NCBI GenBank assembly: GCA_013239625.1
Contig: MU053810.1
Location: 3,566,071-3,630,070 of the forward strand
DNA: 64,000 bases
Direction of reading: 5' to 3'
Origin: Lama guanicoe
Taxonomy: Eukaryota
In this document: in pieces, positions 1-56,011 of the stretch
Layout: every line of letters starts with the position of its first letter
How positions within the stretch are numbered: position 1 is the first letter of the stretch
Position numbers and translations under genes: made by a program
The notes under the pieces: model-generated
Seen by the model: the letters and a program-made list of their open reading frames with translations, nothing else
What the model was told of the DNA's origin: nothing
The model's database searches: none

Positions 1-787
1 TATCTGCTGCCAAGCATGGCCCAGGAAGCCCATCCCTTGTGGGTGGGGCATCTTCAAGGGCTTTGTCCTCCCCCTGGTTAATGCCTGGGCCTTCTCCGCA
101 CCTCACCTCAGGGCTGATCACATACACCTTATGCGGGCCGGTAGGGTCTGCTGAGTTGTCTTGCAACATCACGAGTGCTTTGCAAGGCGTAGGGGAAGTT
201 GGTTTTCCAGGAGGCTCGGAGCGCACCCTCGTTGGTTGGCCGGGCACCACTGCTGCAGGGCGGCCAGCTGCCGCAGGCCACGGCCCAGGCCTTAAAGATG
301 CGAGAATTCGCCTCACCCAGGTCCTTTTGCACAAAGTGCCTCCAGGGAACGCGGAAGTGTGTTCAGGCCGCATCCAGCCACCGCAGCTCCTCACAGCGGT
401 CACTGATGACCTCGGCCAGAAGCCGGTTTCCGAGGAGCACACATGGGGCCCCACTGTCCTGAGCCATGGCCATGCTCCCTCTGCAGGGGCTGGGCGGGGA
501 GGGGCGAGGGTTGTGGTCACGGGCGCAGAGTCAGGAATTACCGCAGGTGAGAAGGTTGCGAGGGTGGCCAGATGTCACCGGTGTTGAGGGCTACAGACGG
601 GAATTGAGGGCTGATGGCCACGACGTTGTCCAGGTGTGAGTCCTGGCCAAGGCGGTGATAGGTGTGACTACAGATGCTGCGAGCGCACGCACAAGGGGCG
701 ACAGGTGCAGAGCCGGCCTCTGGGCAGGCCTTGCGGGGCCACTACGGAGCTGGTGCAGGAACAGATGGAGCAGGAAATCTCGTCCCC
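1..787 (-). pseudogene. IRF7: IRF7 processed pseudogene: 5'UTR plus N-terminal DNA-binding domain, continuing beyond the left edge
   Basis: From ATG at 473 the minus strand reads MAMAQDSGAPCVLLGNRLLAEVISDRCEELRWLDAA*THFRVPWRHFVQKDLGEANSRIFKAWAVA...WKTNF, then after a frameshift (~172) VMLQDNSADPTGPHKVY, matching IRF7 (FRVPWKHF, RIFKAWAVA, WKTNF, DPHKVY). No introns; TGA at 363-365 (codon 37); 5'UTR ends GCCCCTGCAGAGGGAGCATGG as in IRF7 mRNA; abuts L1 sequence at ~788. Confidence 0.93.
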
Positions 788-14382: not shown

Positions 14383-16421
14383 CTTTTTAGTCAGGTTACA
14401 GTGTTGTGTTCATTTCCGTGTGCAGCACAGTTATTCAGTTATACATACATGTATATATATTGTTTTCCATATTCTTTTTTACTATAGGCTATTACAAGGT
14501 ATTTAATGTAATTCCCTGTGCTATACAGTAGGACCTTGTTGTTTATCTATTTTATATTTAGTGGTTAATATCTGCAAATCCCAAACTCCCAATTTATCCC
14601 TCCATTCCCCTCTTCCCCCCAGTAACCATAAGTTTGTTTTCTATGTCTGTGAGTCTGTTTCTGTTTTTTAAATAAGTTCATTTGTGTCTTTTTCTTTTTT
14701 TTTAGATTCCACATATAAGTGCTATCGTAGGGTTGGTTTGTTTTTTTGTTTTTTTTTGGCTGGCCCAGGCCTCAGAAAGAGGCTGCTTTATTGGAAGCTA
14801 TTCTGACATCATTTTTCAGACTGCCTTGCAGTTTTGGGACCAGGGATGGGAGTTGTCTTGTAACTATGGGGTCGGGGTAACGGTCTCCCACACCCTGGGC
14901 TCAGTTGAGGGTGCTCCTGCCAGTGGCAGATGTGGTCCTAATGGAGTAGGCCTCGAGGGCCCCGGGCCCTCCGGCACTGGAGAATCTCAGGGCATTGCTG
15001 CCCATGGTTCCCCGAAAGGTCAGCCGACTGCCAGCACCGCCGGTGGAATTCACCACAGGGATGTTCACGGTTTCCACTCCATCTCCGGTCAACCTGCTCT
15101 CCTCGCCCTCCAGCAGCTTGCGGTAGGTGGCGATCTCGATGTCCAGGGCCAGCTTGATATTCATCAACTCCTGGTACTCCTGGAGCTGCCGGGCCATGGC
15201 CTGCTTGGCTTGTTGCAGGGCAGCCTCCAGCTCTTCCTGCTTGGCGCGTGCCTCTTGAGTGCCAGCTCCCCACGCTCCTCAGCCTCAGCGATGGCAGCCT
15301 CCAAATTGGCACGCTGGTTCTCGATGCTGTCGATCTCCGCCTGCAGCCCCTGGACGGCCGGGTTCATCTCCGCAATCTCATTTCCGGTATTCCGGAGTTC
15401 ATCCCCCTGCTTCCCAGCCTGGGCCTGGAGGGTCTTAAACTTGGTCTTGTACATGGTCTCGGCCTCGGCCCGGCTGCGGTTGGCGATCTCCTCGTACTGG
15501 GCCTTGACCTCAGCGATGATGCCATCCAGGTCCAGGGAGCGGCTGTTGTCCACGGACGTGTCTGAGACCTCGGACTGCAGCTCTTTCAACTCCTCCTGGT
15601 AGAGAGCCCTGAGGAAGTTGATCTCGTCATTCAAGGCATCCACCTTGGCCTCCAATTCCACCTTATTCATGTAGGCAACATCTGCATCCTTCTTCAACAC
15701 CGCGATCTGATTCTCGGCAGCCGTGCGACGGTTACTTTCATCTTCGTACTTACTCTTGAAGTCGTCCACGACTTCCTGCATGTTCCGAAGCTCCACCTCC
15801 AGGCGGCCCCCATCCAGCTGTATTGTCTCAAGCTGCTTCCGCAGGCCGGCAATGCGGGCCTCAAAGATGCCCGGGAGGCGGCAGCTCTCGGTCGACTTCT
15901 GCTCCTGCCGCAGCGCCCACGTGGCCTCCAGCAGCTTGTTCTGCTGCGCCAGGAACCGGACCTTGTTGATGAAGGAGGCGAGCTTGTTGATGAGAGTCTT
16001 CATCTGCTCGCGCTCCTCCTGGCGCACCTGCTGGATGGAGACGTCGACGTCCACCTGCAGCCGAGTCAGCAGGCTCTGATTGATGGCGACCTCGCGGATG
16101 CCAGCGCCCACGGGGCCCCGGTAGGATGAGCACATGGCCACGCGTGGCTGCGAGGTGCCCAGGCCGTAGAGGCGGCGGCTGCTGCTGCTACCGAAGCCGC
16201 TGGGGCTCATGGAGCTCAGGGGCACCTGGGTGCCACGCCCTGGCAAGGCGGCGGAGTAGGAGCTGAAGTGGAAGGACATGCTGGCTGGGCTGGGCTGGGC
16301 TGGGCTGAACGGCGGGCGACAGTGGGCTGAACTCCATATGGTATTTATCTTTATCTTTCTGGCTTACTTCGCTTACTGTGACAATTTCCAGGTCCATCCA
16401 TGGTGCTGCAGATGGCATTAT
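14383..16421 (-). mobile_element. Young L1 3' end split into ~14383-14730 and ~16335-16421 by the KRT7 retrocopy
   Basis: TTTAGATTCCACATATAAGTG... stops at ~14730 and resumes as CATATGGTATTTATCTTTATCTTTCTGGCTTACTTC at ~16336, colinear with the uninterrupted L1 at 62335-62400. Confidence 0.85.
14733..16335 (-). pseudogene. KRT7: Keratin 7 processed pseudogene (ATG 16279 to stop 14901, one frameshift)
   Basis: KRT7-type head (MSFHFSS...RGTQVPLSS...[17 protein letters not shown]), rod, and KRT7-type tail ([21 protein letters not shown]...AYSIRT). Intronless; 1-nt deletion at ~15253; 12-nt deletion in linker L12 ([11 protein letters not shown]); AATAAA at 14787-14792 (minus); A-rich tail ~14734-14758. 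Confidence 0.95.
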
Positions 16422-26972: not shown

Positions 26973-27110
26973 GGGAAGGGAATGTAACTCAGTGGTAGAG
27001 TGCATGCTTAGCATGCACGAGGTCCTGGGTTCAATCTTCGATAAATCTGTTTAAATAAATAAATAAATACATACATACATAAAGCTAGTTACCTCTGCCT
27101 CCCCAAAAAA
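26973..27110 (+). mobile_element. tRNA-Ala(AGC)-derived SINE (camelid vic-1 type)
   Basis: A box TAACTCAGTGG, CTTAGCAT anticodon loop, B box GGTTCAATC, (TAAA)n, TTACCTC...CCCC(A)n; imperfect TSD AAGAAATTT/AAGAAGTTT. Confidence 0.88.
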
Positions 27111-31665: not shown

Positions 31666-31790
31666 GGGGGAAGGTGTAGCTCAAGGGGTAGAGCACATGC
31701 TTAGCATGCATGCGGTCCTGGGTTCCATCCCCAGTACCTCCTCTAAAAATAAATAAACCTAATTACCTCTCCCCACCAGGAGGAAAAAAA
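31666..31790 (+). mobile_element. tRNA-Ala-derived SINE (vic-1 type)
   Basis: GGGGGAAGGTGTAGCTCAAG...CTTAGCATG...GGTCCTGGGTTCCATCCCCAGTACCTCC, then AAATAAACCTAATTACCTC; imperfect TSD AAATGCAGATTA/AAATACAAGTTA. Confidence 0.9.
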
Positions 31791-35738: not shown

Positions 35739-36359
35739 GATAGGCATAACTCAGACTGTAAAGCCAAGTTCAGAATGATAGGAACAACTCATCAGAGGAG
35801 CAGCAGCAAGGACAATATGTACCAGACCCGGAGCCGAGGGGCCCTGGGCTCTGACAGTAACAGGCGCCGCCCTGGACAATGCGGCCACTATGACTACCCG
35901 GCACCACCTCACCACCCTGGCGGGGCTCCAGCCCCCAGTGCAGCCCCTCCCATCCCAGAAGGCCCCTGGTAGGAAGCAAAGCCTGCTAAATAGGGAAAAG
36001 GAGAAGCTTAAATGCAAATAAATGAGTGGGGGGGAAAAAAAAGAAAAGAAAAAGAAGAGAAACCAAAAGTTTCAAACAGAAAACCAAAATATTTCCTTTA
36101 TTTCAAATTCTATGCTAAGCGGAATAATATTATATACCATTCGGGAAATGTGAAATAAAACTGTTAGACAAACAGAATATTTAATTTTTTTTTAAATCTA
36201 AGAGGAACAGGGGGGTAACAAAGGATTCATTGCGTGTTACTTCTATATTCTAAGAGCTGATTTTAAAGAAAAATAGCACTTTCCCAAGAATTAATTTTGT
36301 CTTAGATGGTAAATTTATATTCATAAAGATTCACACAAAGAATAACACTGGTCACACAT

Positions 36360-39420: not shown

Positions 39421-39969
39421 ATGTCTGGGATGACATAGACATACGAGTAATATCCAATATCTCACAGCTGCCTTTAAACTCCTGAGTGACACCTGATAAA
39501 CAAAAGCCACATATAAGCTAAACAGACAGCATTTACTGTACTACTACCAGATTAGATGGTAAATGCTTTATCACTCAGTGTCATTACAAAATATTTTTTA
39601 GACAAACCTTCATTGATATCTACCATATTTCAAGTGATGTCTTGTATGCTAGATATATAAAAGGACTAAGGAAATAAGGGCCTTGCACTCAGTGTCATAG
39701 AACCTGATGGTAAATATAGACATATAATCATAAAAGCACAAAAAAAAAAGGCCATAGATGCCAAATTAGGAGTCTGTACAGATACAGTAGTATGCAACAA
39801 CCTGGAGAATAGTCATTGCAATAAACAGGGTGGAAGTGTCCGAAAGCATGGGATGAGCTGTGTCCTTGGGAGCGTAAAAGAGCTCACCTGTCTTCACAAT
39901 TCCATTCATCACTGGATTCACATACTTGATTCTTTCAAAGTAAATCTGACCAACACCTTTGCCATTCAC

Positions 39970-40232
39970 TAGGGATCGCTCTCTGGCAGGGACGGGGCCA
40001 TGGAGTTTCCATTGGTTGGGGAACCGCCCAGCTTTAGTTTTTCCAGATATTCGGCATGCATGGGCTTGTGGCACTGGAGAACCTTGATCGCAGGCCGCCT
40101 GCCGCTGCTTGGTCCCCGCCGCCGCCGCCTCCACCTGCGAGGTGCTCCGAGGTGCTTGGGGGAGAAAGGGCCACGGCGAGGGGCGGGGAGAGAGGCGCCT
40201 CAGCCCGCAAGCCCTTGGAGCTGGGTTGGCTT
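39970..40232 (-). pseudogene. Probable retrocopy fragment of an unidentified gene (may extend to ~39770)
   Basis: CpG/GGC-repeat-rich leader running without intron into a coding-like stretch AIKVLQCHKPMHAEYLEKLKLGGSPTNGNSMAPSLPESDP*; sharp compositional edges against AT-rich repeat DNA. No clear poly(A) or TSD; parent not recognised. Confidence 0.55.
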
Positions 40233-42880: not shown

Positions 42881-43213
42881 TGCAATCCATGGAAGACTGG
42901 GCTGCACCTCGGTCCTTTGGCATTGGAGCCCTGACATAAACCCCACACTGCTTGGCAGAAAACTTGGGACCATTTTGAACCAGGCCCCTTTATCTTTTCC
43001 CAAAATGTGCTTGATGGCAGAGTCATCCTGCAAGATGACCTGCAGAGAAATGGGTTCCAGGAGCAAAAAAAGCGGGGAATGCTGCAAATGGAAATCCCCC
43101 TTGGAGAATCCCATTTTACAGCAGCTCTGGGAAGTCTTGCATTACAGAAACACCATCTAACTCAGTGTTTCTTAAACTGATTTGAATACAGAACCCTTTT
43201 TGTTCACATAAAA

Positions 43214-43691
43214 CCTATTAATAACTATGGGAATTTGTATTTCTGCAGAACGTGTCTTAGAGAATGGTGACTCAGAACAGTTCCTAAGTTCCTCTCTCAA
43301 GAACGGTCTCTTTTTGGACTCCTCTGGCCCAGCTGTTCTTGCTCTTGTGTCTTTTTGGACATCACCCTGCTTGAATAAAGTTGGATTTTGCTGCATTCTT
43401 CTGGATCTCTCTAAAGGGGTCAGTTTCCAGCCCCAAACCCATTCAGATCCCATACAGCCTATTAATAACTATGGGAATTTGTATTTCTGCAGAACGTGTC
43501 TTAAGAGAATGGTGACTCAGAACAGTTCTTAAGTTCCTCTCTCAAGAACGGTCTCTTTTTGGACTCCTTTGGCCCAGCTGTTCTTGCTCTCGTGTCTTTT
43601 TGGATATCACCCTGCTTGAATAAAGCTGGATTTTGCTGCATTCTCTCTAAAGGGGTCAGTTTCCAGCCCCAAACCCATTCAGATCCCATAC
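43214..43691. repeat. Tandem duplication, two copies, period 244 bp
   Basis: Copies start CCTATTAATAACTATGGG at 43214 and 43458. By eye they differ by 5 C/T substitutions, a 1-nt indel and a 9-nt indel. Confidence 0.97.
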
Positions 43692-44315: not shown

Positions 44316-44458
44316 TTTGTTGTTGTTTCGTTTTGTTTTGAGGGGAGGTAATTAGGTTTATTATTATTATTATTTACTTAATGTAGGTACTGGGGATTGA
44401 ACCCATGACCTTGTGCATGCTAGGCATGCACTCCAACACTGAGCTATACCCTCCCCCC
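44316..44458 (-). mobile_element. tRNA-Ala-derived SINE (vic-1 type)
   Basis: Reverse complement GGGGGGAGGGTATAGCTCAGTG...GGGTTCAATCCCCAGTACC; TSD AAAAGATGA(A/C)TT; lies beside an L2 remnant (~44065-44300). Confidence 0.9.
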
Positions 44459-47400: not shown

Positions 47401-48165
47401 AAATCTGAAAGGAGTACAAATAAGTTGTTAAACATATCTGTTCAACTTTATGTCTTTAAGAAGAATCTGAAGCAAGTGTGACAAGTATGACAAGCGTTAA
47501 CATCCATTTAAGCTGGATGGTTTGATTATAGCTGTTAAATGAATTTCACTCGGTGTCTTTCTGATGGTTTGAAATACCGTGTGGGGCAAATATATACATT
47601 GGTTTGCTCAACATCGACAGCAGCCTCCTCCTGCTGTGCCTCCCTGAGCTCAGAGACTGGAAAGTGAAATACTAGACTTTCTTCCAGTTAGTGTCCCAGG
47701 TATGATTTTGGTTCCAACATCACAGCTTCATTGGAACTGACATAATTGAGGAGTGAAGCAGGAATGAGGCACCTATTTGTCAGGATGGCCACAGAGGTGG
47801 TGTGGTTTGGAGACTGGCAGCTGTGTTGCAGGTTCCCCAGTTTAGCAGGGATGGCATGTTTTGCAACCAGCAGCCTCTTTCAGACGATGGTGCAGGGAGG
47901 GTAAAGCCAAGCAGAGCACCAGCAGGGACAGAGCTCCAGAAATGTGTAAATCTATACACCTGCTAAGCTGAGCCATTCCCACAGACTATGCAGGGCTGGG
48001 AGATATTCAGGTTCTGACTGGGTGGAATGCAGAGACCTTGCTGAACATTCTGAGCAGTGGGCAGCGATCCCAGAAGGGTCACATGTTAGCAGCAGAATTA
48101 AAAGAGTCCTTGATTAAAGACTACTCTAGACATACCTGGAAAAAGCTTATAAACAAGCCTCAAAG

Positions 48166-48437
48166 ATAAGACTCACACACCCCAATGCTAATAGCAGCAC
48201 TATTTACAACAGCCAAGATATGGAAACAACCCAAATGTCCATGAACAGATGACTGGATAAAGAAGATGTGGTACATATATACAATGGAACACTACTCAGC
48301 CATAAAAAAGAATAAAATAATGCCATTTGCAGCAACATGGATGGTCCTGAAGATTGTCATTCTAAGTGAAGTGGGCTGGAAGGAGAAATAAAAATGTCAT
48401 ATGATATCAGTTATATGTGGAATCTAAAAAAAAAAAA
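48166..48437 (+). mobile_element. Short young L1 fragment ending at the internal A tract
   Basis: CACCCCAATG...TGGAAACAACCCAAATGTCCA...ATGTGGAATCT(A)n; outer TSD AACAAGCCTCAAAG at 48152-48165 and 49822-49835. Confidence 0.88.
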
Positions 48438-49789
48438 TTTCTTTTTGGAGGTACAGAGAGTTTACTCAAAGTCCAATACAGACTGGCCCAGCTGCCTTCT
48501 ACAATGTGCCAGGAAAAAAGGGCCTACAGAAAAGGTAGAAGTTGTTATAAAATTGCTTTAATTCAGTTCTCTCCACATTACAAGGCAGCGGCGGGCAGTG
48601 GACTCTGCCTGCTCCCCTTACAACGCTGAGCCTGTAACCACTGTTATCAAAATATACATCTGTCACCATAAAAAACCGCGTGTGCTGCCCCTTGTGACTT
48701 ACAAGAGGTATAAAAAATTATAAATATTTACACCCTTATTCCACGCGACATGGAAACTCGGGGCCCAGACCCTGAGGGAGGGCTGGCCAGCATGGGGCCT
48801 GTGCGCGGGAGCCCCTTGGACCCATGAGTGCAGGGCGAGGCAGTTAAGACCGGAGGGCGGCTGCTCCAGCTCCTGGGGTCCCAGCATTAGAGGCAGAAAA
48901 AAAAAAAGAAACAAAACTTTGGTCCAAAATTTGCAGGAAGAAAGAAACCCTGAAAGTTTAAGAGCACTCGTCCTCCCTGACCAAGGACAGTTGGGTGTGA
49001 GTAAGGCATTTGGGGGCCACCCTGAGGCTGGATCCTGCCCTGCAACTTCGTTACAAGGAATAAAATAACAGTATACAAAGGTCATACTTGCTGGAGAAAC
49101 TTTAGATTACACTCATGCCATTTTTATCTTGCTATATAAAAGGTACCTAAAACTATTTCTTTTGCATATAACTGAGAAAGTTTAGGATATTTGGTCAACT
49201 GGAAATATTGCTAGGCACAGACGCCTGCAGCTGCATCAAAGCGTAATACAAAGGTTCCGGTGAAAACAAAGCTGAAGAAGCGCCAGGGACATGCCCTGGG
49301 GTCTCGCCCTGGGACTTGGGAGGAGAATCACATACTTGATTAAAGGATCCGGGGTGTCGGCCAGGTCTGGCCACTCACCGCCTGCTGCCACACCAGGCAC
49401 ATGATCCCAGAGGAGGCTGGCCCCTTGGGCCCCAAAAGCCCTCCATGCCTGCTACCCCAAGAAGGCCCTGCCAGAGCAGCGGGTTTAAGGCACAAGAGAG
49501 CCGCATGGAGGTTTGGGAGCGTGCACCCTGCAGCTGCAGAAGGCACGGGCGAGGGGTGGGGAGCAGGGGTGCCGTCCTTGCCTGCACCCCATCTCCCCTA
49601 GGTGAGCAAGTGAATTAGATTTAATTTTTTAAAAACAGGTAAACTGATTTCTCTTAAAAAAATAAAATCTCTGGTCTTTTAAGGTCACTTCAGCTGCTTT
49701 TTAAAGTGGCTTTTTTCTGGAATGACAGAAGTTGTGGCCAGGCACCCGGCAGGCTGGTCCTGGGGGCCTAGATGGTGGACTTGGAGAAG
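48438..49789 (-). pseudogene. PTBP1: 5'-truncated PTBP1 retrocopy: last 6 codons plus whole 3'UTR
   Basis: Minus strand begins TTC TCC AAG TCC ACC ATC TAG (FSKSTI*, the PTBP1 C-terminus; stop 49768-49770). Then blocks I recognise from the PTBP1 3'UTR: AAAAGCCACTTTAAAAAGCAGCTGAAGTGACCTT, GAGAAATCAGTTTACCTGTTTTT, CTGTGCCTAGCAATATTTCCAGTTGACCAAATAT, AAGGGTGTAAATATTTATAATTTTTTATACCT. AGTAAA signal at 48461-48466 and a short A tail. Confidence 0.92.
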
Positions 49790-50803
49790 TAAAAAACTTT
49801 TTAAAAAATTTTCTTTAATACAACAAGCCTCAAAGGGTCAAACTGACTTGCGAATAAGTGTCTGTCAATCAAAACAAAGTTCAACACCCTTTACAAGAAG
49901 AAAAAAAATTCAGATACTCAACAACATGAAATTCACAATATCCAGCACCCAATAAACAAGTCAGTCAATATAGAAAAAAACAAAAAGATCCAGAAATGCG
50001 AGCAATGACAGAATCAGCACAAAAAGCCTTTAAGACAACTATTATAAATATGTTCAAGTATCTAAGGGAAAGCAGGAACACAATGAGGAGAAAAAAGGAT
50101 ATTTAAAAAGAACAAAATGGAACTTTCCAGAGATGAAAAATACAATATTCAAAATAAAAATTTTATTGGATGGGATCAGTAGCAGATTAGACGTGTGACG
50201 GGAAAAAGATCAGTGAACTTAAAAATGATGCAAAAGAAACCACCCAAACTGAAGCAAACAAAGGGAAAAAAAGGGTGAAAATAATGAACTGAGCCTTGGC
50301 ACCCTGTGGGACAATAAGTACCAAGCGGTCCAGGTTCATGTAATTGGGGTGCAGAAGGAGGGGAGAAAGGAGAAAACAGAAGTCATCTGAAGAAAAAGGT
50401 GTTTGAGGAAATAATAGCCCCCAAATTTTCAAATTAAATGAAAAACAAATCATAACCAAATTGTTGAGAAACGGAGATAAACATAATATTAAAAGCAGTG
50501 CAAAGAGAAGGGGAGGGGAGACATTACACACGGGAGGAAAAAAGAATAGTCGCTGACTTCGAAGCAATACAAGCTGGAAGACAGAGGAGCAACATTTCCA
50601 AAGTGATGAAACGGGAAAAAAGTTAACTTAGGGTTCTCTATCTAGCAAAAATATCCTTCAAAGAGACAGGCAAAAATAAATAAATCTTCAGGCAAACAGA
50701 GAAACTGGGAAAATCATGGGTAGCATAGTTGCACGATAAAAAATATGAAAGAAAGTCCATTCTTCAGGCCATTGAAAAGTGATCTCTAATAAAAACTCAG
50801 ATC

Positions 50804-53385
50804 AAGAGCAGAGCTGCACGCGCACGCGGGAAAGGGAAGGGCGCGGGGTCTAGAAAGGGGGGGGTTAAGTGCCCTGGTCCCCCCTGGTTTCCCTCGACTG
50901 GGATGGAATAAGGGGAGGAAATGATCGAGACGGCGCGGGGAAGGAGCCGCTTCTGATGCCAGCCCCGCCGCCGCCGCTCAAAGGTGAGTGGGACGGAGGC
51001 GGCGGCCCCACGGGGCAGCCGCACCGAGAGGCCGCCCCCGGGGAGCTCCGCGGCGGGACGCGGCGTGGGCCGGGCCCGCGCGCGCACTCGGCGGGGTCCC
51101 CGGCTTCTGGGACCGGCAAGGACAGCCCCGGGGCTGCATCCAGCCCTCCGGGCGGCCGGTCGCAGCAGCAACGAGCGGGCGGCCCCCAGGCGCAGTCGCA
51201 CGGGGACGCCCGCTTGTCCGATCCCCACAGGCGAGCAGCTCCCCCGGCCGTGGGGAAGGAACGACTGGGCCCCCCTGCCCCCTCCTCGACCCCGCAATGG
51301 CTATCAGCCCCACCGACCCCCTGGGGGAGGTCGGGGGAAGAGGAGAAACAGCTGTAATGTAGGGGGAGGTGGTGGAGGCTTCAAACACCCAGCCTTCAAG
51401 AGGTGCAGGCCGGTTAATTCAGACCGTGACTCTGTCTTGCCTTCCAGCTTCCTGGAGGGCAGTATCTTTGATCCGCTGAACCTGAATAGCCTCCTGGATG
51501 AGGAAGTGAGCCGCGCACTCAATGCAGAGACCCCTAAGTCATCCCCACTTCCGGCCAAGGGGCGAGATCCAGTGGAGATCCTCATCCCCAAAGATATTAC
51601 TGACCCTCTGTCTGAATACTTGCACTGATGAGGCCCAAGTAGTTCTTGCTTCACCACTCAAGACTGGTCGGAAGCGGCATAGACACTGGGGACAGCGGCA
51701 GCAGCAGAGGCAGGCAACTGGAGGGAACGATAGCCACTCTGTGCTTCCCACAGCCCCCCTCACTCCCTCACTCCCTCACTCCGTGGGGAGGGCACCACAC
51801 AGCAGCAGCGGCATAGGGACCAGGACTGGGACGTATGAACTCAACACAGCCGTCAGCTGCAGGGATGAGGTCGTGTCACCCCTTCCATCTGCCCTGCAGG
51901 GTCCCTCAGGCTCCCTTTCAGCCCCTCCAGCTGTCTCAGTTACCTGTGCACCCCCATCTTCCTCCTCACGACATCGCAAACATCGCAGGACTTCCAGCAT
52001 GTCAGAGGCAGGGGCTCAGGGTGGAGGCCAGGGTCCCAAGGTAAAGGGCCGAGGGAGTGGGGGAGGCCGCCACCAGGTCCACCCACTCCCTGCAGCAGGT
52101 TTCAAAAAGCAACAGCGCAAGTTCCAGTACGGGAATTACTGCAAGTACTGTGGGTACCGCAGTCCTTCTTGTGAGGATGGGCGCCTTCAGGTGTTGAAGC
52201 CTGAGTGGTTTCGGGGTCGGGACGTCCTAGATCTGGGCAGCAATGTGGGCCACCTGACCCTGAGCATTGCCTGTAAGTGGGGCCCATCCCGCATGGTGGG
52301 CCTGGATATTGATGCCCGGCTTATCCACTCTGCCCGCCAAAACATCCGACACTACCTGTCCAAAGAGCTGTGTCTGCCACCCCGGACTTCTGAAGGGGAC
52401 CCAGGAGCAGAGAGTGAGGAAGGGACCACAACCATCCGAAAGAGGAGCTGCTTCCCAGCCTCACTGTCAGCCAGTCGGGGTCCCATTGCTGCACCCAAGT
52501 GCCCTTGATTGGAGCTGACACATCCGTCTTCCCCAACAATGTTGTCTTCCTCACAGGTAACTATGTGCTGGATCGAGATGAGCTGGTGGAGGCCCAAACA
52601 CCCGAGTACGATGTGGTGCTCTGCCTCAACCTCACCAAGTGGGTGCATCTGAACTCGGGAGATGAGGGGCTCAAGCGTATGTTTCGCCAGATCTCCTGGC
52701 ACCTACGTCCTGAGGGCATCCTGGTCCTGGAGCCCCAGCCTTGGTCATCTTACGGCAAGAGAAAGACCCTTACGGAAACAATCTACAAGAACTACTATTG
52801 AATCCAGCTGAAGCCAGAGCAGTTCAGTTCCTACCTGACATCCCCTGAGGTGGGCTTCTCCAGCTATGAGCTTGTGGCCACACCCCACAACACCTCCAAC
52901 GGCTTCCAGCGTCCTGTGTTCCTGTTCCACAAGGCCCGTTCGCCCAGCCACTAAGTGTCCTCCTGAACAGAAAGTGTGCAGAAGCTGCCTGCTGCTCCTA
53001 AGGACCTGGGGGAAGAGGAAAGTATCCCAAGGTCTTTCCTTTCTGGCTCCAAAAATAGTTTCCTTTCTTGGATCTGCAAAGAAAGCTTTTCCCGTGTTGC
53101 TGCCCCAGCCTCTTCCCTACATCTCTGGCACCTAAGCAAGCCCAGCTGTGCTGGAGTTACCATCATCTTCGTCTCCCCTAGCCCGCTGGGCTGGATGGCA
53201 TGAACTGTTTGCTGACCTCCATTCTCCTAGGGCAAGGGAGGTGGGGGGGTATCAAGTTCTCTAGCCTTTTTCTCCTGTTCTCCCAGCTGTCCCGCACTGG
53301 GAAAGGGGGTTGGGTTTGGAATGTGAGAACAGCACAATAAACTTGATGTTGAGGGCAGTGCCCCCCCCAAAACCCCCCAAAACAA
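50804..53385 (+). pseudogene. MEPCE: Full-length MEPCE (7SK methylphosphate capping enzyme, BCDIN3) processed pseudogene
   Basis: ATG 50921 to TAA 52952-52954. Peptides [90 protein letters not shown]. Intronless; several frameshifts (first at codon ~6); TGA at 52799-52801; AATAAA 53336-53341; TSD AAAAACTCAGATC at 50791-50803 and 53386-53398. Confidence 0.97.
50810..51330. promoter_or_regulatory. CpG island carried in by the MEPCE retrocopy
   Basis: Very high GC and dense CpG (GCACGCGCACGCGGG, GGCCCGCGCGCGCACTCGGCGG) in an AT-rich L1 context. Promoter activity is not shown by sequence alone. Confidence 0.6.
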
Positions 53386-53755
53386 AAAAACTCAGATCTA
53401 CGTAAAGGAATGAAGAATACTGGAACTAGTAAATATGTGAGCAAGTTTTAGTAACTTTTATCCTCATTTTAAAAATAATTGACGATGCAAAACAAAAGTA
53501 ACGAGAATGTATTTGTGGATTTCACCACGTGGAGAAATAAAGTGGATGATGATAACAGCACAACAGACAGGAGGGGCTTCAGCAGAATTGCACTCTGTGA
53601 AGTGGCACATACCACTCTCTGAAGGTGGATGGTGACAAGGGAAAGAAGGATATTATGACCTCTTGAGCGGTGATGACACTAGGGAGCCAGGCAGAGGTCT
53701 GTGGAACTCTTGAGTACTACTTCCGCAACTTTTCTGTACGTCTAAAATTATTTCA

Positions 53756-53902
53756 GGGGGGAAGGTACAGCTCAAGTGGTAGAGTGCGTGCTTAACATGC
53801 ACCAGGTCCTGGGTTCAATCCCCAGTACCTTCTCTAAAGATAGATTAATAAATAAACTTTAACATCCCCTCCCCGCCAAAACAAACCTACGAAAAATAAA
53901 AC
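53756..53902 (+). mobile_element. tRNA-Ala-derived SINE (vic-1 type) inside an old L1 3' fragment
   Basis: GGGGGGAAGGTACAGCTCAAGTGGTAGAGTGCGTGCTTAACATGCACCAGGTCCTGGGTTCAATCCCCAGTACC; TSD AAAAT(T/A)ATTTCA. Confidence 0.9.
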
Positions 53903-54149
53903 AAAATAATTTCAAAATAAAATGTTAAAAAGAAACAATATAAACCAACATAAAAATAAACACTATAAACCAGATACATTTGATCTTATGTTAACTGTAT
54001 CTTTAAAAATTGATTTAACAAATAAAGGTGCTACCAAGGATCCGGCTATTTGTCTCCTCTCTGTGTGTCATGGAGTCAGTGTCATTTTCAAGGCGGTTTC
54101 CATAACCGTCTGAAGACCCCTGCCAGCTAGCTAGTTTCATCATGTCTAT

Positions 54150-54450
54150 CAGGGGAGAGGGTAAGCACTTTATAGGAAGTTCTCATAATTCCTTCACAGA
54201 GAGCCCCCAAACATCTCTTCTTGTGTCTCTCCGCACTGACTGGATCACATGCCTACTTCTGAACCAAGCTCTGTGGCCTGGAAAATAGGATATCTTGATT
54301 GACTCAAGCCAATCAGGGCTCACCCTGGAGCTGGGGGTGAGGTTATTAGTCACATCGGAAACTCGCTCCCGGGGAAGTTGGGGTTTTGTTAGAGCAAGAG
54401 TCGAAAGAAATGCATGCTGGGGAGGCAGCCACCAAATGCCTGTAAGAGAT
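54150..54450 (-). mobile_element. Old MLT1 (J/K-like) LTR fragment
   Basis: TGGATCACATGCCTACTTCTGAACCAA...TGATTGACTCAAGCCAATCAGGG...ATGCTGGGGAGGCAGCCAC motifs. Confidence 0.6.
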
Positions 54451-56011
54451 GGCTTCTTCTGGGCTGCTATGAGCAAAATATATTTTAAATTCCCAACCTA
54501 CGAGGCTCTAAAGACTGATTGTTAGTATTACTTAACTGTAGCTGTTTTATCATTCTGCTTGCTCCTTCCAGAGAAATTTCCGAAGAATTTGGATAGGCTT
54601 ACACTTGCTGATACTATTTAGATAAAATATTAGATAAACTCATTTATCTATTTTTCATCCAGTTTTGCATGACTCCCAGAAGATGGCCTGTTCCATTCTC
54701 TTTCCTCCTCCCTCCCCTACTTGACAGACTCCCTTACCCCCTTTTCCTCCTCCTCTTACTTTTCTCACTCTTCCTGTTCTCAATACCTTGTTTGCAATAA
54801 AACAGGTAGAGCAATCTTTGAGTCAAGTGCAGTAGTAAGTGCAATTTGTTTGACAGTCCTCTGCTTTCAAAGAACATGTTTGTCGTGCAGATGCAGTCTT
54901 TGATTTTTCCAACAGCTATTAAATGTAAAAATGGTTAGTGCTAATATAAAAACAAACAAATGTTCCAACTGTGAGCTCTTCCCAGTGGGAATAATCAGTT
55001 TAGAGTGAGGATTAGAACCTCTGCAAACAGAGGAATGCAATTACTGGACGTCTTCACTCACTCTTGTTTACTCAATTTTATCAAACCCCCATTGATACAT
55101 GTTTCCCCAGTGACTGTCATGGAAGAACACTGTAATTTTCCTAAGCCTGCTTAAGCGCTTCTAGCCTTGACTGAGTCTAACACTTTTGGGACAAATTTTG
55201 ATTTTTCTAGGAATAATAAGTAACCAGTTTCAGAGTTTGCCAATAATAGGAATACACATCAAATAATGTATTATCTGCAATTATGTTTTAGTTAGCATGC
55301 TATTACATAATTAGCAATTTTTTAGATTACTATAATAATCAAAAGAGCATATATTTTGATAATGTGCTGATTACATGGCCTACAGAATATCTTAACTCTT
55401 AAGGAGATGCTTGTCTTTTGAAATTCACACAGTGGAAAGTCAGCTCATCCAGCTTCTCAGCTGCAAACCACTTAACAAATCCAGAGTGAATTTTAAAAAT
55501 GCCAACCCTGCTATCTGAAGATCCTGCCATTGTGCCAGATTCTGCTGACGGAAGAATGTTTTTCACAGCTTGAATATCATTCCTGAAAAAATATCCAACA
55601 GAAAGCAGAAATATTAGACAAAGGGGAAGACTATAAACCCAAGAAAGAATGCATTATTTCCCTTAGCTATAGTGGTCTGGACTGGTGAGTCTCTGAATAC
55701 TGACTTTGCAGATTTATCCATTTTACAAGTGTTATTTTTGTTATTTATACCATTAAAACATTTTACACTAGTCACTGTTACTAATTCACAATTTACTTGA
55801 GTGTCAGGTTTTTAAATGACTGAGTACAATTTGTATATATTTAACCTAAGTTTATAAATCAAAGTAAAGAATTCTTTTTTTCCCTAGAACATAAAATACT
55901 CTGTGATATTTTAATGGGAATTGGAAAAATTAAGTGTGAGTGAGTGAAGCCAGGATGTCCAATAATTGACCTCATACACAGCCTAGTGAGAAAGCCAAGA
56001 GACTCAAGCAT

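Follow-up and report, generated by a model that had tools for sequence, protein, structure and literature searches.

A Probably Neutral, 5'-Truncated PTBP1 Processed Pseudogene Made Almost Entirely of 3'UTR in the Guanaco Genome

The stretch analysed here (the window) comprises 64,000 nucleotides of the Lama guanicoe contig MU053810.1. Judging from its letters, the minus strand of positions 48438-49789 is a 5'-truncated PTBP1 processed pseudogene formed by 22 coding bases and 3'UTR. The identity of the copy, its truncation point, its end in the poly(A) region, the duplications that flank it and the inheritance of its microRNA seed matches can be read directly in the alignments described below. 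We assign a probability of about 0.78, on sequence grounds, to the reading that it is a pseudogene without selected function, that is, most likely a neutral retrocopy of a very common kind. The neutrality was argued from bounds, and the parent gene is represented by a distant PTBP1-like locus (last exon and UTR), found in a metagenome contig (L001). The features are collected in Table 1.

Table 1. Features of the PTBP1 copy, its insertion site and the rest of the window (window coordinates, except for L001)
Feature	Position	Strand	Evidence or remark
PTBP1 coding end (1 base, codons FSKSTI, stop)	49768..49789	-	Published primer identity, translation
PTBP1 3'UTR copy, ~1.32 kb	48446..49767	-	4 colinear blocks with L001; siRNA-target match
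miR-1/206 site CATTCCA	49718..49724	-	UTR position 44 (human 45-51); also in L001
Further miR-124 7mer GTGCCTT	49540..49546	-	Not in L001
miR-124 8mer GTGCCTTA	49486..49493	-	Within 13-base exact run common to L001
miR-137 site AGCAATA	49206..49212	-	UTR position 556 (human 642-648); also in L001
Second miR-133 site GACCAAA (7mer-A1)	49190..49196	-	Also in L001
miR-124 7mer-A1 TGCCTTA	49002..49008	-	TGCCTTA in same order in L001
miR-133 8mer GGACCAAA	48918-48925	-	Motif scan
miR-9 7mer ACCAAAG	48917-48923	-	Motif scan
Overlapping miR-133 8mer and miR-9 7mer (GGACCAAAG)	48917..48925	-	UTR position 843; human miR-133b site 1031-1038
Terminal poly(A) signal, AGTAAA where L001 has AATAAA	48461..48466	-	L001 alignment
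Short A remnant merged with inner duplication, 3' copy	48426..48445	-	AAAGAAA then T-run, the L1 A-run read backwards
Inner duplication, 5' copy (AAAGAAAA, T6, AAAAAG, T6, A)	49790..49816	-	Imperfect; no exact word over 9 bases shared
Short L1 fragment (ORF2 end, 3'UTR start, up to internal A-run), ~270 bp	48166..48437	+	Tail-to-tail with PTBP1 copy
Outer target-site duplication, left (AACAAGCCTCAAAG)	48152..48165	+	14-base exact repeat
Outer target-site duplication, right	49822..49835	+	14-base exact repeat
MEPCE processed pseudogene (frameshifts, stops)	50804..53385	+	13-base duplication 50791-50803 / 53386-53398; not in PTBP1 insert
CpG island at MEPCE retrocopy 5' end, candidate promoter	50804..51370	+	Divergent from PTBP1 copy
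IRF-family pseudogene, in-frame stops, runs off window start	1-780	-	Pfam IRF, E 4.3e-11
Type II keratin retrocopy, 399-codon open frame, late frameshift	14760-16330	-	CpG o/e 0.62
GC-rich coding-looking stretch, L1 A-tail before, A-rich run after	35779-35990	+	By sequence
GC-rich piece, CCG run, donor-like GTGAG near 39887	39880-40210	-	GC 0.59, CpG o/e 0.63
Tandem duplication ~240 bp, near-identical copies from ~43212 and ~43458	43212-43690		By eye
tRNA-derived SINE copies, n=4	53756-53880, 44340-44458, 31666-31757, 26991-27036		Presumed camelid family
L001 PTBP1-like last exon and 2.9-kb UTR	L001 3078-3209 and downstream	-	Metagenome contig

The coding end was compared with published oligonucleotides. 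All 22 bases of window 49768-49789 are identical to the reverse (ORF-end) primer listed for PTBP1 NM_002819.4 (PMC6048363). Translated from 49788 in frame 1 of the minus strand, they give FSKSTI and then a stop codon that finishes at 49768, which bears out an earlier note on this DNA, according to which only six codons had been copied. A longer PTB primer (PMC3594294) reads on with GAG, whereas the window reads on with TAA, right at 49789, and the truncation was therefore placed at this base. Within the UTR, 23 of the 25 bases of window 49667-49691 coincide, by eye comparison, with a human PTBP1 3'UTR siRNA target (PMC5983799).

A mammalian orthologue was searched for with a conserved 26-base pattern, which returned one locus in metagenome contigs (L001) and none in genome and viral contigs. 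The vertebrate sequence in this contig is probably host DNA, and its distance from the copy suggests a non-mammal. The copy and L001 share four colinear blocks of 71-89% identity, and the colinearity stays within the insert: no block goes past the 5' side, and the last one reaches the poly(A) region. The last exon of L001 has 43 codons, 6 of which are kept in the copy, which starts inside the last exon and crosses no exon junction. The UTR of L001 is about twice as long as that of the copy, and the order of the seeds is nonetheless the same. Two open reading frames of more than 100 residues inside the copy had no Pfam match. The claim of a PTBP1 retrocopy is sustained by the primer identity, the colinearity with L001 and the siRNA-target match, and PTBP1 also appears to be the best match among its paralogues in that the primer, the siRNA target and the human site order all agree. 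As FSKSTI is the C-terminal end of both PTBP1 and PTBP2, the assignment is carried by the DNA evidence. That the parent was PTBP2 or PTBP3 instead can practically be dismissed, even though the four structure matches of L001 do not include PTBP3 and so say nothing about it for that locus, given the two oligonucleotide matches, the order and approximate offsets of the miR-1/206, miR-137 and miR-133 sites, which are those of human PTBP1, and the 79 bits of the L001 exon to PTBP1 against 64 to PTBP2.

The earlier note had listed two miR-124 matches, a miR-133 match and an overlapping ACCAAAG, which we take to be a miR-9 seed match, and all four motifs (4/4) were found on the minus strand at the positions of Table 1. 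Beyond this list we detected the miR-1/206 and miR-137 sites, a second miR-133 site and an extra miR-124 7mer, as well as the nested insertion described below. It has been published that miR-124, miR-137, miR-1/206 and miR-133b target PTBP1 (PMC8584187, PMC4951342, PMC5983799), so the background on miR-124 and miR-133 that had accompanied the list is in print, and miR-124 oligos carry the seed complement (PMC6205824). Taken singly, the four listed motifs were slightly over chance (p 0.036, 0.017, 0.027, and 0.14; 1352 bases, 5000 dinucleotide shuffles), and the full set appeared in 0 of the 5000 shuffles, the motifs having been picked after the sequence was seen. This excess exists because the copy descends from a genuine 3'UTR; it marks the stretch as non-random sequence, not as a selected copy.

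The seeds that the earlier note had listed, together with the miR-1/206, miR-137 and second miR-133 sites, are present in the same order in L001 and were therefore inherited. In eight exact runs of at least 15 bases, chosen post hoc, 158 non-seed bases are also common to L001, and the longest run, of 44 bases, is free of seeds. Non-seed sequence thus appears to be equally intact where the parent is constrained. Three rough clocks were used to estimate the decay of the copy. The first gave 24 substitutions in 346 non-seed columns (6.9%) from four hand-picked cores aligned with L001, a value that contains the parent-to-L001 distance and is biased low by the choice of alignable cores. The second is the host L1 fragment, presumably older than the copy, which is 85-87% identical to its two nearest relatives in the window (13-15% pairwise). 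The third is the neighbouring MEPCE copy: of the 461 conserved codons in its body 37 are altered, which would correspond to about 3-4% per site. Together they point to a decay of a few percent.

At such a rate the survival of the seeds is what neutrality predicts, since 24 to 38 bases often escape a change of 2-7%: the chance that all 24 seed bases survive is 0.62 at 2%, 0.29 at 5%, and 0.18 at 7% decay, and for 38 bases it is 0.46, 0.14, and 0.06, respectively. The caveat that had been attached to the decoy proposal, namely that intact sites may simply reflect limited age, is thus a better explanation than the decoy itself, with a neutral survival of 18-62%. In the blocks aligned with L001, 0 of 30 seed columns and 93 of 657 non-seed columns differ. 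As a test of selection this contrast was discarded as circular, given that the seeds were chosen as present in the copy, and it measures parental constraint; it mostly reflects that constraint and the choice of seeds, and selection is still compatible with it. It should be considered that 24 seed bases give little power to a retention test and that the reference was L001 rather than a parent of the same species. Unless the parent reads AGTAAA too, the terminal hexamer points to a key signal that has decayed. An ATTAAA at 48557-48562 is kept in the copy.

A key aspect is whether the copy is transcribed. No host gene was found for it among the 58 open reading frames of the window, part of which were searched. 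A candidate promoter is the island of the MEPCE retrocopy, which starts 1.0 kb from the 5' end of the PTBP1 copy in head-to-head orientation. The island measures 567 bp, with a GC content of 0.73 and a CpG o/e of 0.81 against 0.37 in the body. In the island a single case of detectable CpG decay stood against 50 intact opportunities, and in the body there were 10 cases against 57; the Fisher p was 0.023 with cattle, 0.074 with porpoise, and 0.044 with horse as reference, the three values being one data set in which the consensus was drawn from 14 of 96 MEPCE proteins and the island boundary was set from the CpG profile. In a stricter, earlier version of the test (16 proteins), CpG-type changes were 1 of 5 in the island and 10 of 36 in the body, no clear difference. 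Non-CpG changes were commoner in the island (13%) than in the body (6%), so that the consensus is a poorer proxy of the parent there. Several of the island changes relative to the mammalian consensus go toward G or C. If the low CpG decay is real, the island could be unmethylated in the germline and able to fire leftward.

It is therefore conceivable, though unlikely, that the island fires in both directions and that a leftward RNA covers the PTBP1 copy in sense as a mere passenger; this RNA would be low, probably testis-biased and repressed by the matching microRNAs, with no effect on other targets. Besides the composition of the island and its lower CpG decay, this possibility agrees with the finding that 51.5% of the promoters of novel human retrocopies overlap orphan CpG islands and with head-to-head promoter sharing within 2 kb being on record (PMC4772013). 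Against it stand the single data set behind the three p values, the boundary taken from the CpG profile and the outcome of the stricter version. Furthermore, the minus strand carries an AATAAA (50162-50167) and an ATTAAA (49814-49819) ahead of the copy, and no GTRAG donor was found in the spacer between the island and the copy; the two hexamers and the missing donor would favour early termination, and the RNA may stop before the seeds. Most mammalian retrocopies are somewhat transcribed, and low-level expression may be noise (PMC4772013). Transcription of the copy, taken alone, has a small but real chance.

Transcription apart, the insertion site of the copy shows a nested arrangement. On the plus strand the order is the left outer duplication, the L1 fragment with its A-run, the reversed PTBP1 copy, an A/T-rich stretch and the right outer duplication. 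The L1 fragment is 76-87% identical to six further places of the window, one of which encodes the C-terminus of L1 ORF2p (E 4.5e-33). The outer duplication would arise by chance with a probability of about 3e-5. The 3' A remnant of the copy is only AAAAAGAAA, mostly attributable to the inner duplication. On the minus strand, AAAGAAA followed by twelve T is found at both ends of the copy, the 5' one being broken by AAAAAG. The plus strand reads TTTCTTT and then AA at 49810-49818, a site of the L1 endonuclease type, as this endonuclease prefers T-rich/AA sites. The sequence flanking the insert looks like an old L1 (ORF1 region), which 0 of 6 Pfam matches and no credible structure match for either of two pieces did not confirm.

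The outer and the imperfect inner duplications fit two successive L1-driven insertions, and the simplest order, as far as the junctions indicate, would have the L1 first. The short L1 fragment would have been inserted on the plus strand, creating the 14-bp outer duplication, and its A-tail beside that duplication would have made the TTTCTTT/AA site. L1 ORF2p would then have nicked this site and reverse-transcribed a PTBP1 mRNA from the poly(A) tail, halting 1.35 kb on, once 22 coding bases had been copied, which is why the copy would be almost entirely UTR. The copy would have arrived promoterless and decayed randomly by a few percent since. That both pieces came from one event, by template switch or by priming at both cut ends, is improbable. 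One clean 14-bp duplication does surround both of them, and the inner duplication is imperfect, with no exact word longer than 9 bases. However, the pieces join tail-to-tail centrally, whereas the TPRT model expects primed A-ends at the target ends, so that priming at two ends would put them at the outer junctions; moreover, AAAGAAA with twelve T flanks both ends of the copy, as if the L1 tail had been there before.

The distribution of the insert was approached with sequencing runs. Fourteen of the 24 listed runs (7 studies, 4 organism codes; 12 guessed to be DNA and 2 untyped) contain a share of 0.69-0.80 of the words from 47600-50600, and considering that the flanks make up 44% of that region, the genomes behind them probably carry the insert. 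These are shares of words, not junctions, and one run may be the source of the window itself. Five runs recorded as RNA and one guessed to be RNA hold 0.11-0.19 of the words, which may come from parent mRNA, repeats or DNA and are uninformative on expression, and 4 of the 24 hold 0.04 or less.

Considering the above, the microRNA-decoy role that had been put forward in the earlier note finds no support: the seeds survive neutrally, non-seed blocks are equally intact and the thresholds for competition are very high. In its strongest form it would be a decoy of the PTENP1 type, in which a selected, UTR-only RNA buffers miR-124, miR-9, and miR-137 in neurons or miR-1/206 and miR-133 in muscle, or competes for the proteins that bind the PTBP1 UTR, tuning PTBP1; we find this very improbable. 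It is true that seven or eight sites of five families are intact, that the miR-133 and miR-9 sites overlap, that the MEPCE island is a candidate promoter close by and that the insert is probably common to several species, to judge from the 14 runs under 4 organism codes. However, neutral survival suffices for the seeds, the copy lacks a promoter of its own, and its terminal hexamer is non-canonical. No family has more than three sites in it, when the thresholds lie near 10^4 sites per cell: in ES cells derepression set in once 0.9-1.3 x 10^4 sites per cell had been added, in hepatocytes above 2.1 x 10^5, and a multitude of sites for different families is not expected to lower the threshold unless they are cooperative (PMC5101187). 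Pseudogene UTRs often have seeds in common with others, so that such sharing gives little information (PMC5148010). It is likewise hardly to be expected that the island, unmethylated in the germline, drives a nearly coding-free sense RNA of the PTBP1 3'UTR, with its sites for five neuronal and muscle microRNA families, that is selected and in this lineage modulates PTBP1 or the factors that regulate it.

By comparison with known systems, the presumably neutral copy resembles L1-mediated processed pseudogenes, of which there are thousands per therian genome (PMC4772013), in that it derives from an mRNA, is 5'-truncated, ends in the poly(A) region, lies between duplications and has no promoter of its own. 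It differs from the typical ones in being cut inside the last exon and nested in an L1 tail, and with its near absence of coding sequence it would escape catalogues of retrocopies based on open reading frames. Human PTBP1P has the same parent gene and is reported to differ in expression in lung adenocarcinoma and in venous disease, with no decoy role given in the passages concerned (PMC7835786, PMC7287878); given the apparent youth of the guanaco copy, orthology between the two is unlikely. The ceRNAs PTENP1, BRAFP1, and TUSC2P share 3'UTR seeds with their parents as the copy does, and such sharing is the rule for mammalian PTEN pseudogenes (PMC5148010), but in those cases transcription was shown and function tested, whereas the PTBP1 copy is known from its sequence alone. 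The quantitative basis of ceRNA competition is itself disputed (PMC5101187). As in retrocopies that use orphan CpG islands or head-to-head promoters, a divergent island lies within about 1 kb, but here it forms the 5' end of a second retrocopy, a disabled one, and is a candidate promoter only. A search of the literature at title level, with most subscription papers outside its reach, found neither a camelid PTBP1 retrocopy nor a PTBP1 pseudogene decoy.

It was also possible to see other retroposed sequences in the window. Four retrocopy-like pseudogenes (IRF family, type II keratin, PTBP1, and MEPCE) lie in the 64 kb; we take the IRF-family one at 1-780 to be IRF7 and the keratin one to be KRT8-like, and the latter has a T-run and a piece of L1 beside it at ~14692-14729. 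Retrocopies were assumed to occur once per 150-400 kb. At that density the Poisson chance of four is 1e-3 or less, for a window picked post hoc, and the cluster may mark germline-open chromatin. An Rfam scan of 48438-56000 gave a tRNA-like SINE and nothing else; the tRNA-derived SINE of the window presumably belongs to the camelid family. A family name for it was not found in the part of PMC8605555 consulted. The piece at 39880-40210, which had no Pfam match in two frames, is either an exon or another retrocopy fragment, and the stretch at 35779-35990 may be a short piece that was retroposed or transduced.

As to its meaning, the copy preserves, as presumably neutral sequence, the ancestral state of the PTBP1 3'UTR, the nested insertion is a marker usable for dating, and the whole is a reminder of the UTR-only retrocopies that catalogues based on open reading frames miss. 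If the copy were driven by the island and its sites were selected, it would serve as a natural experiment, built on UTR sequence alone, for the disputed ceRNA model at a splicing switch central to neurons and muscle, and it would be a case in which one pseudogene powers another.
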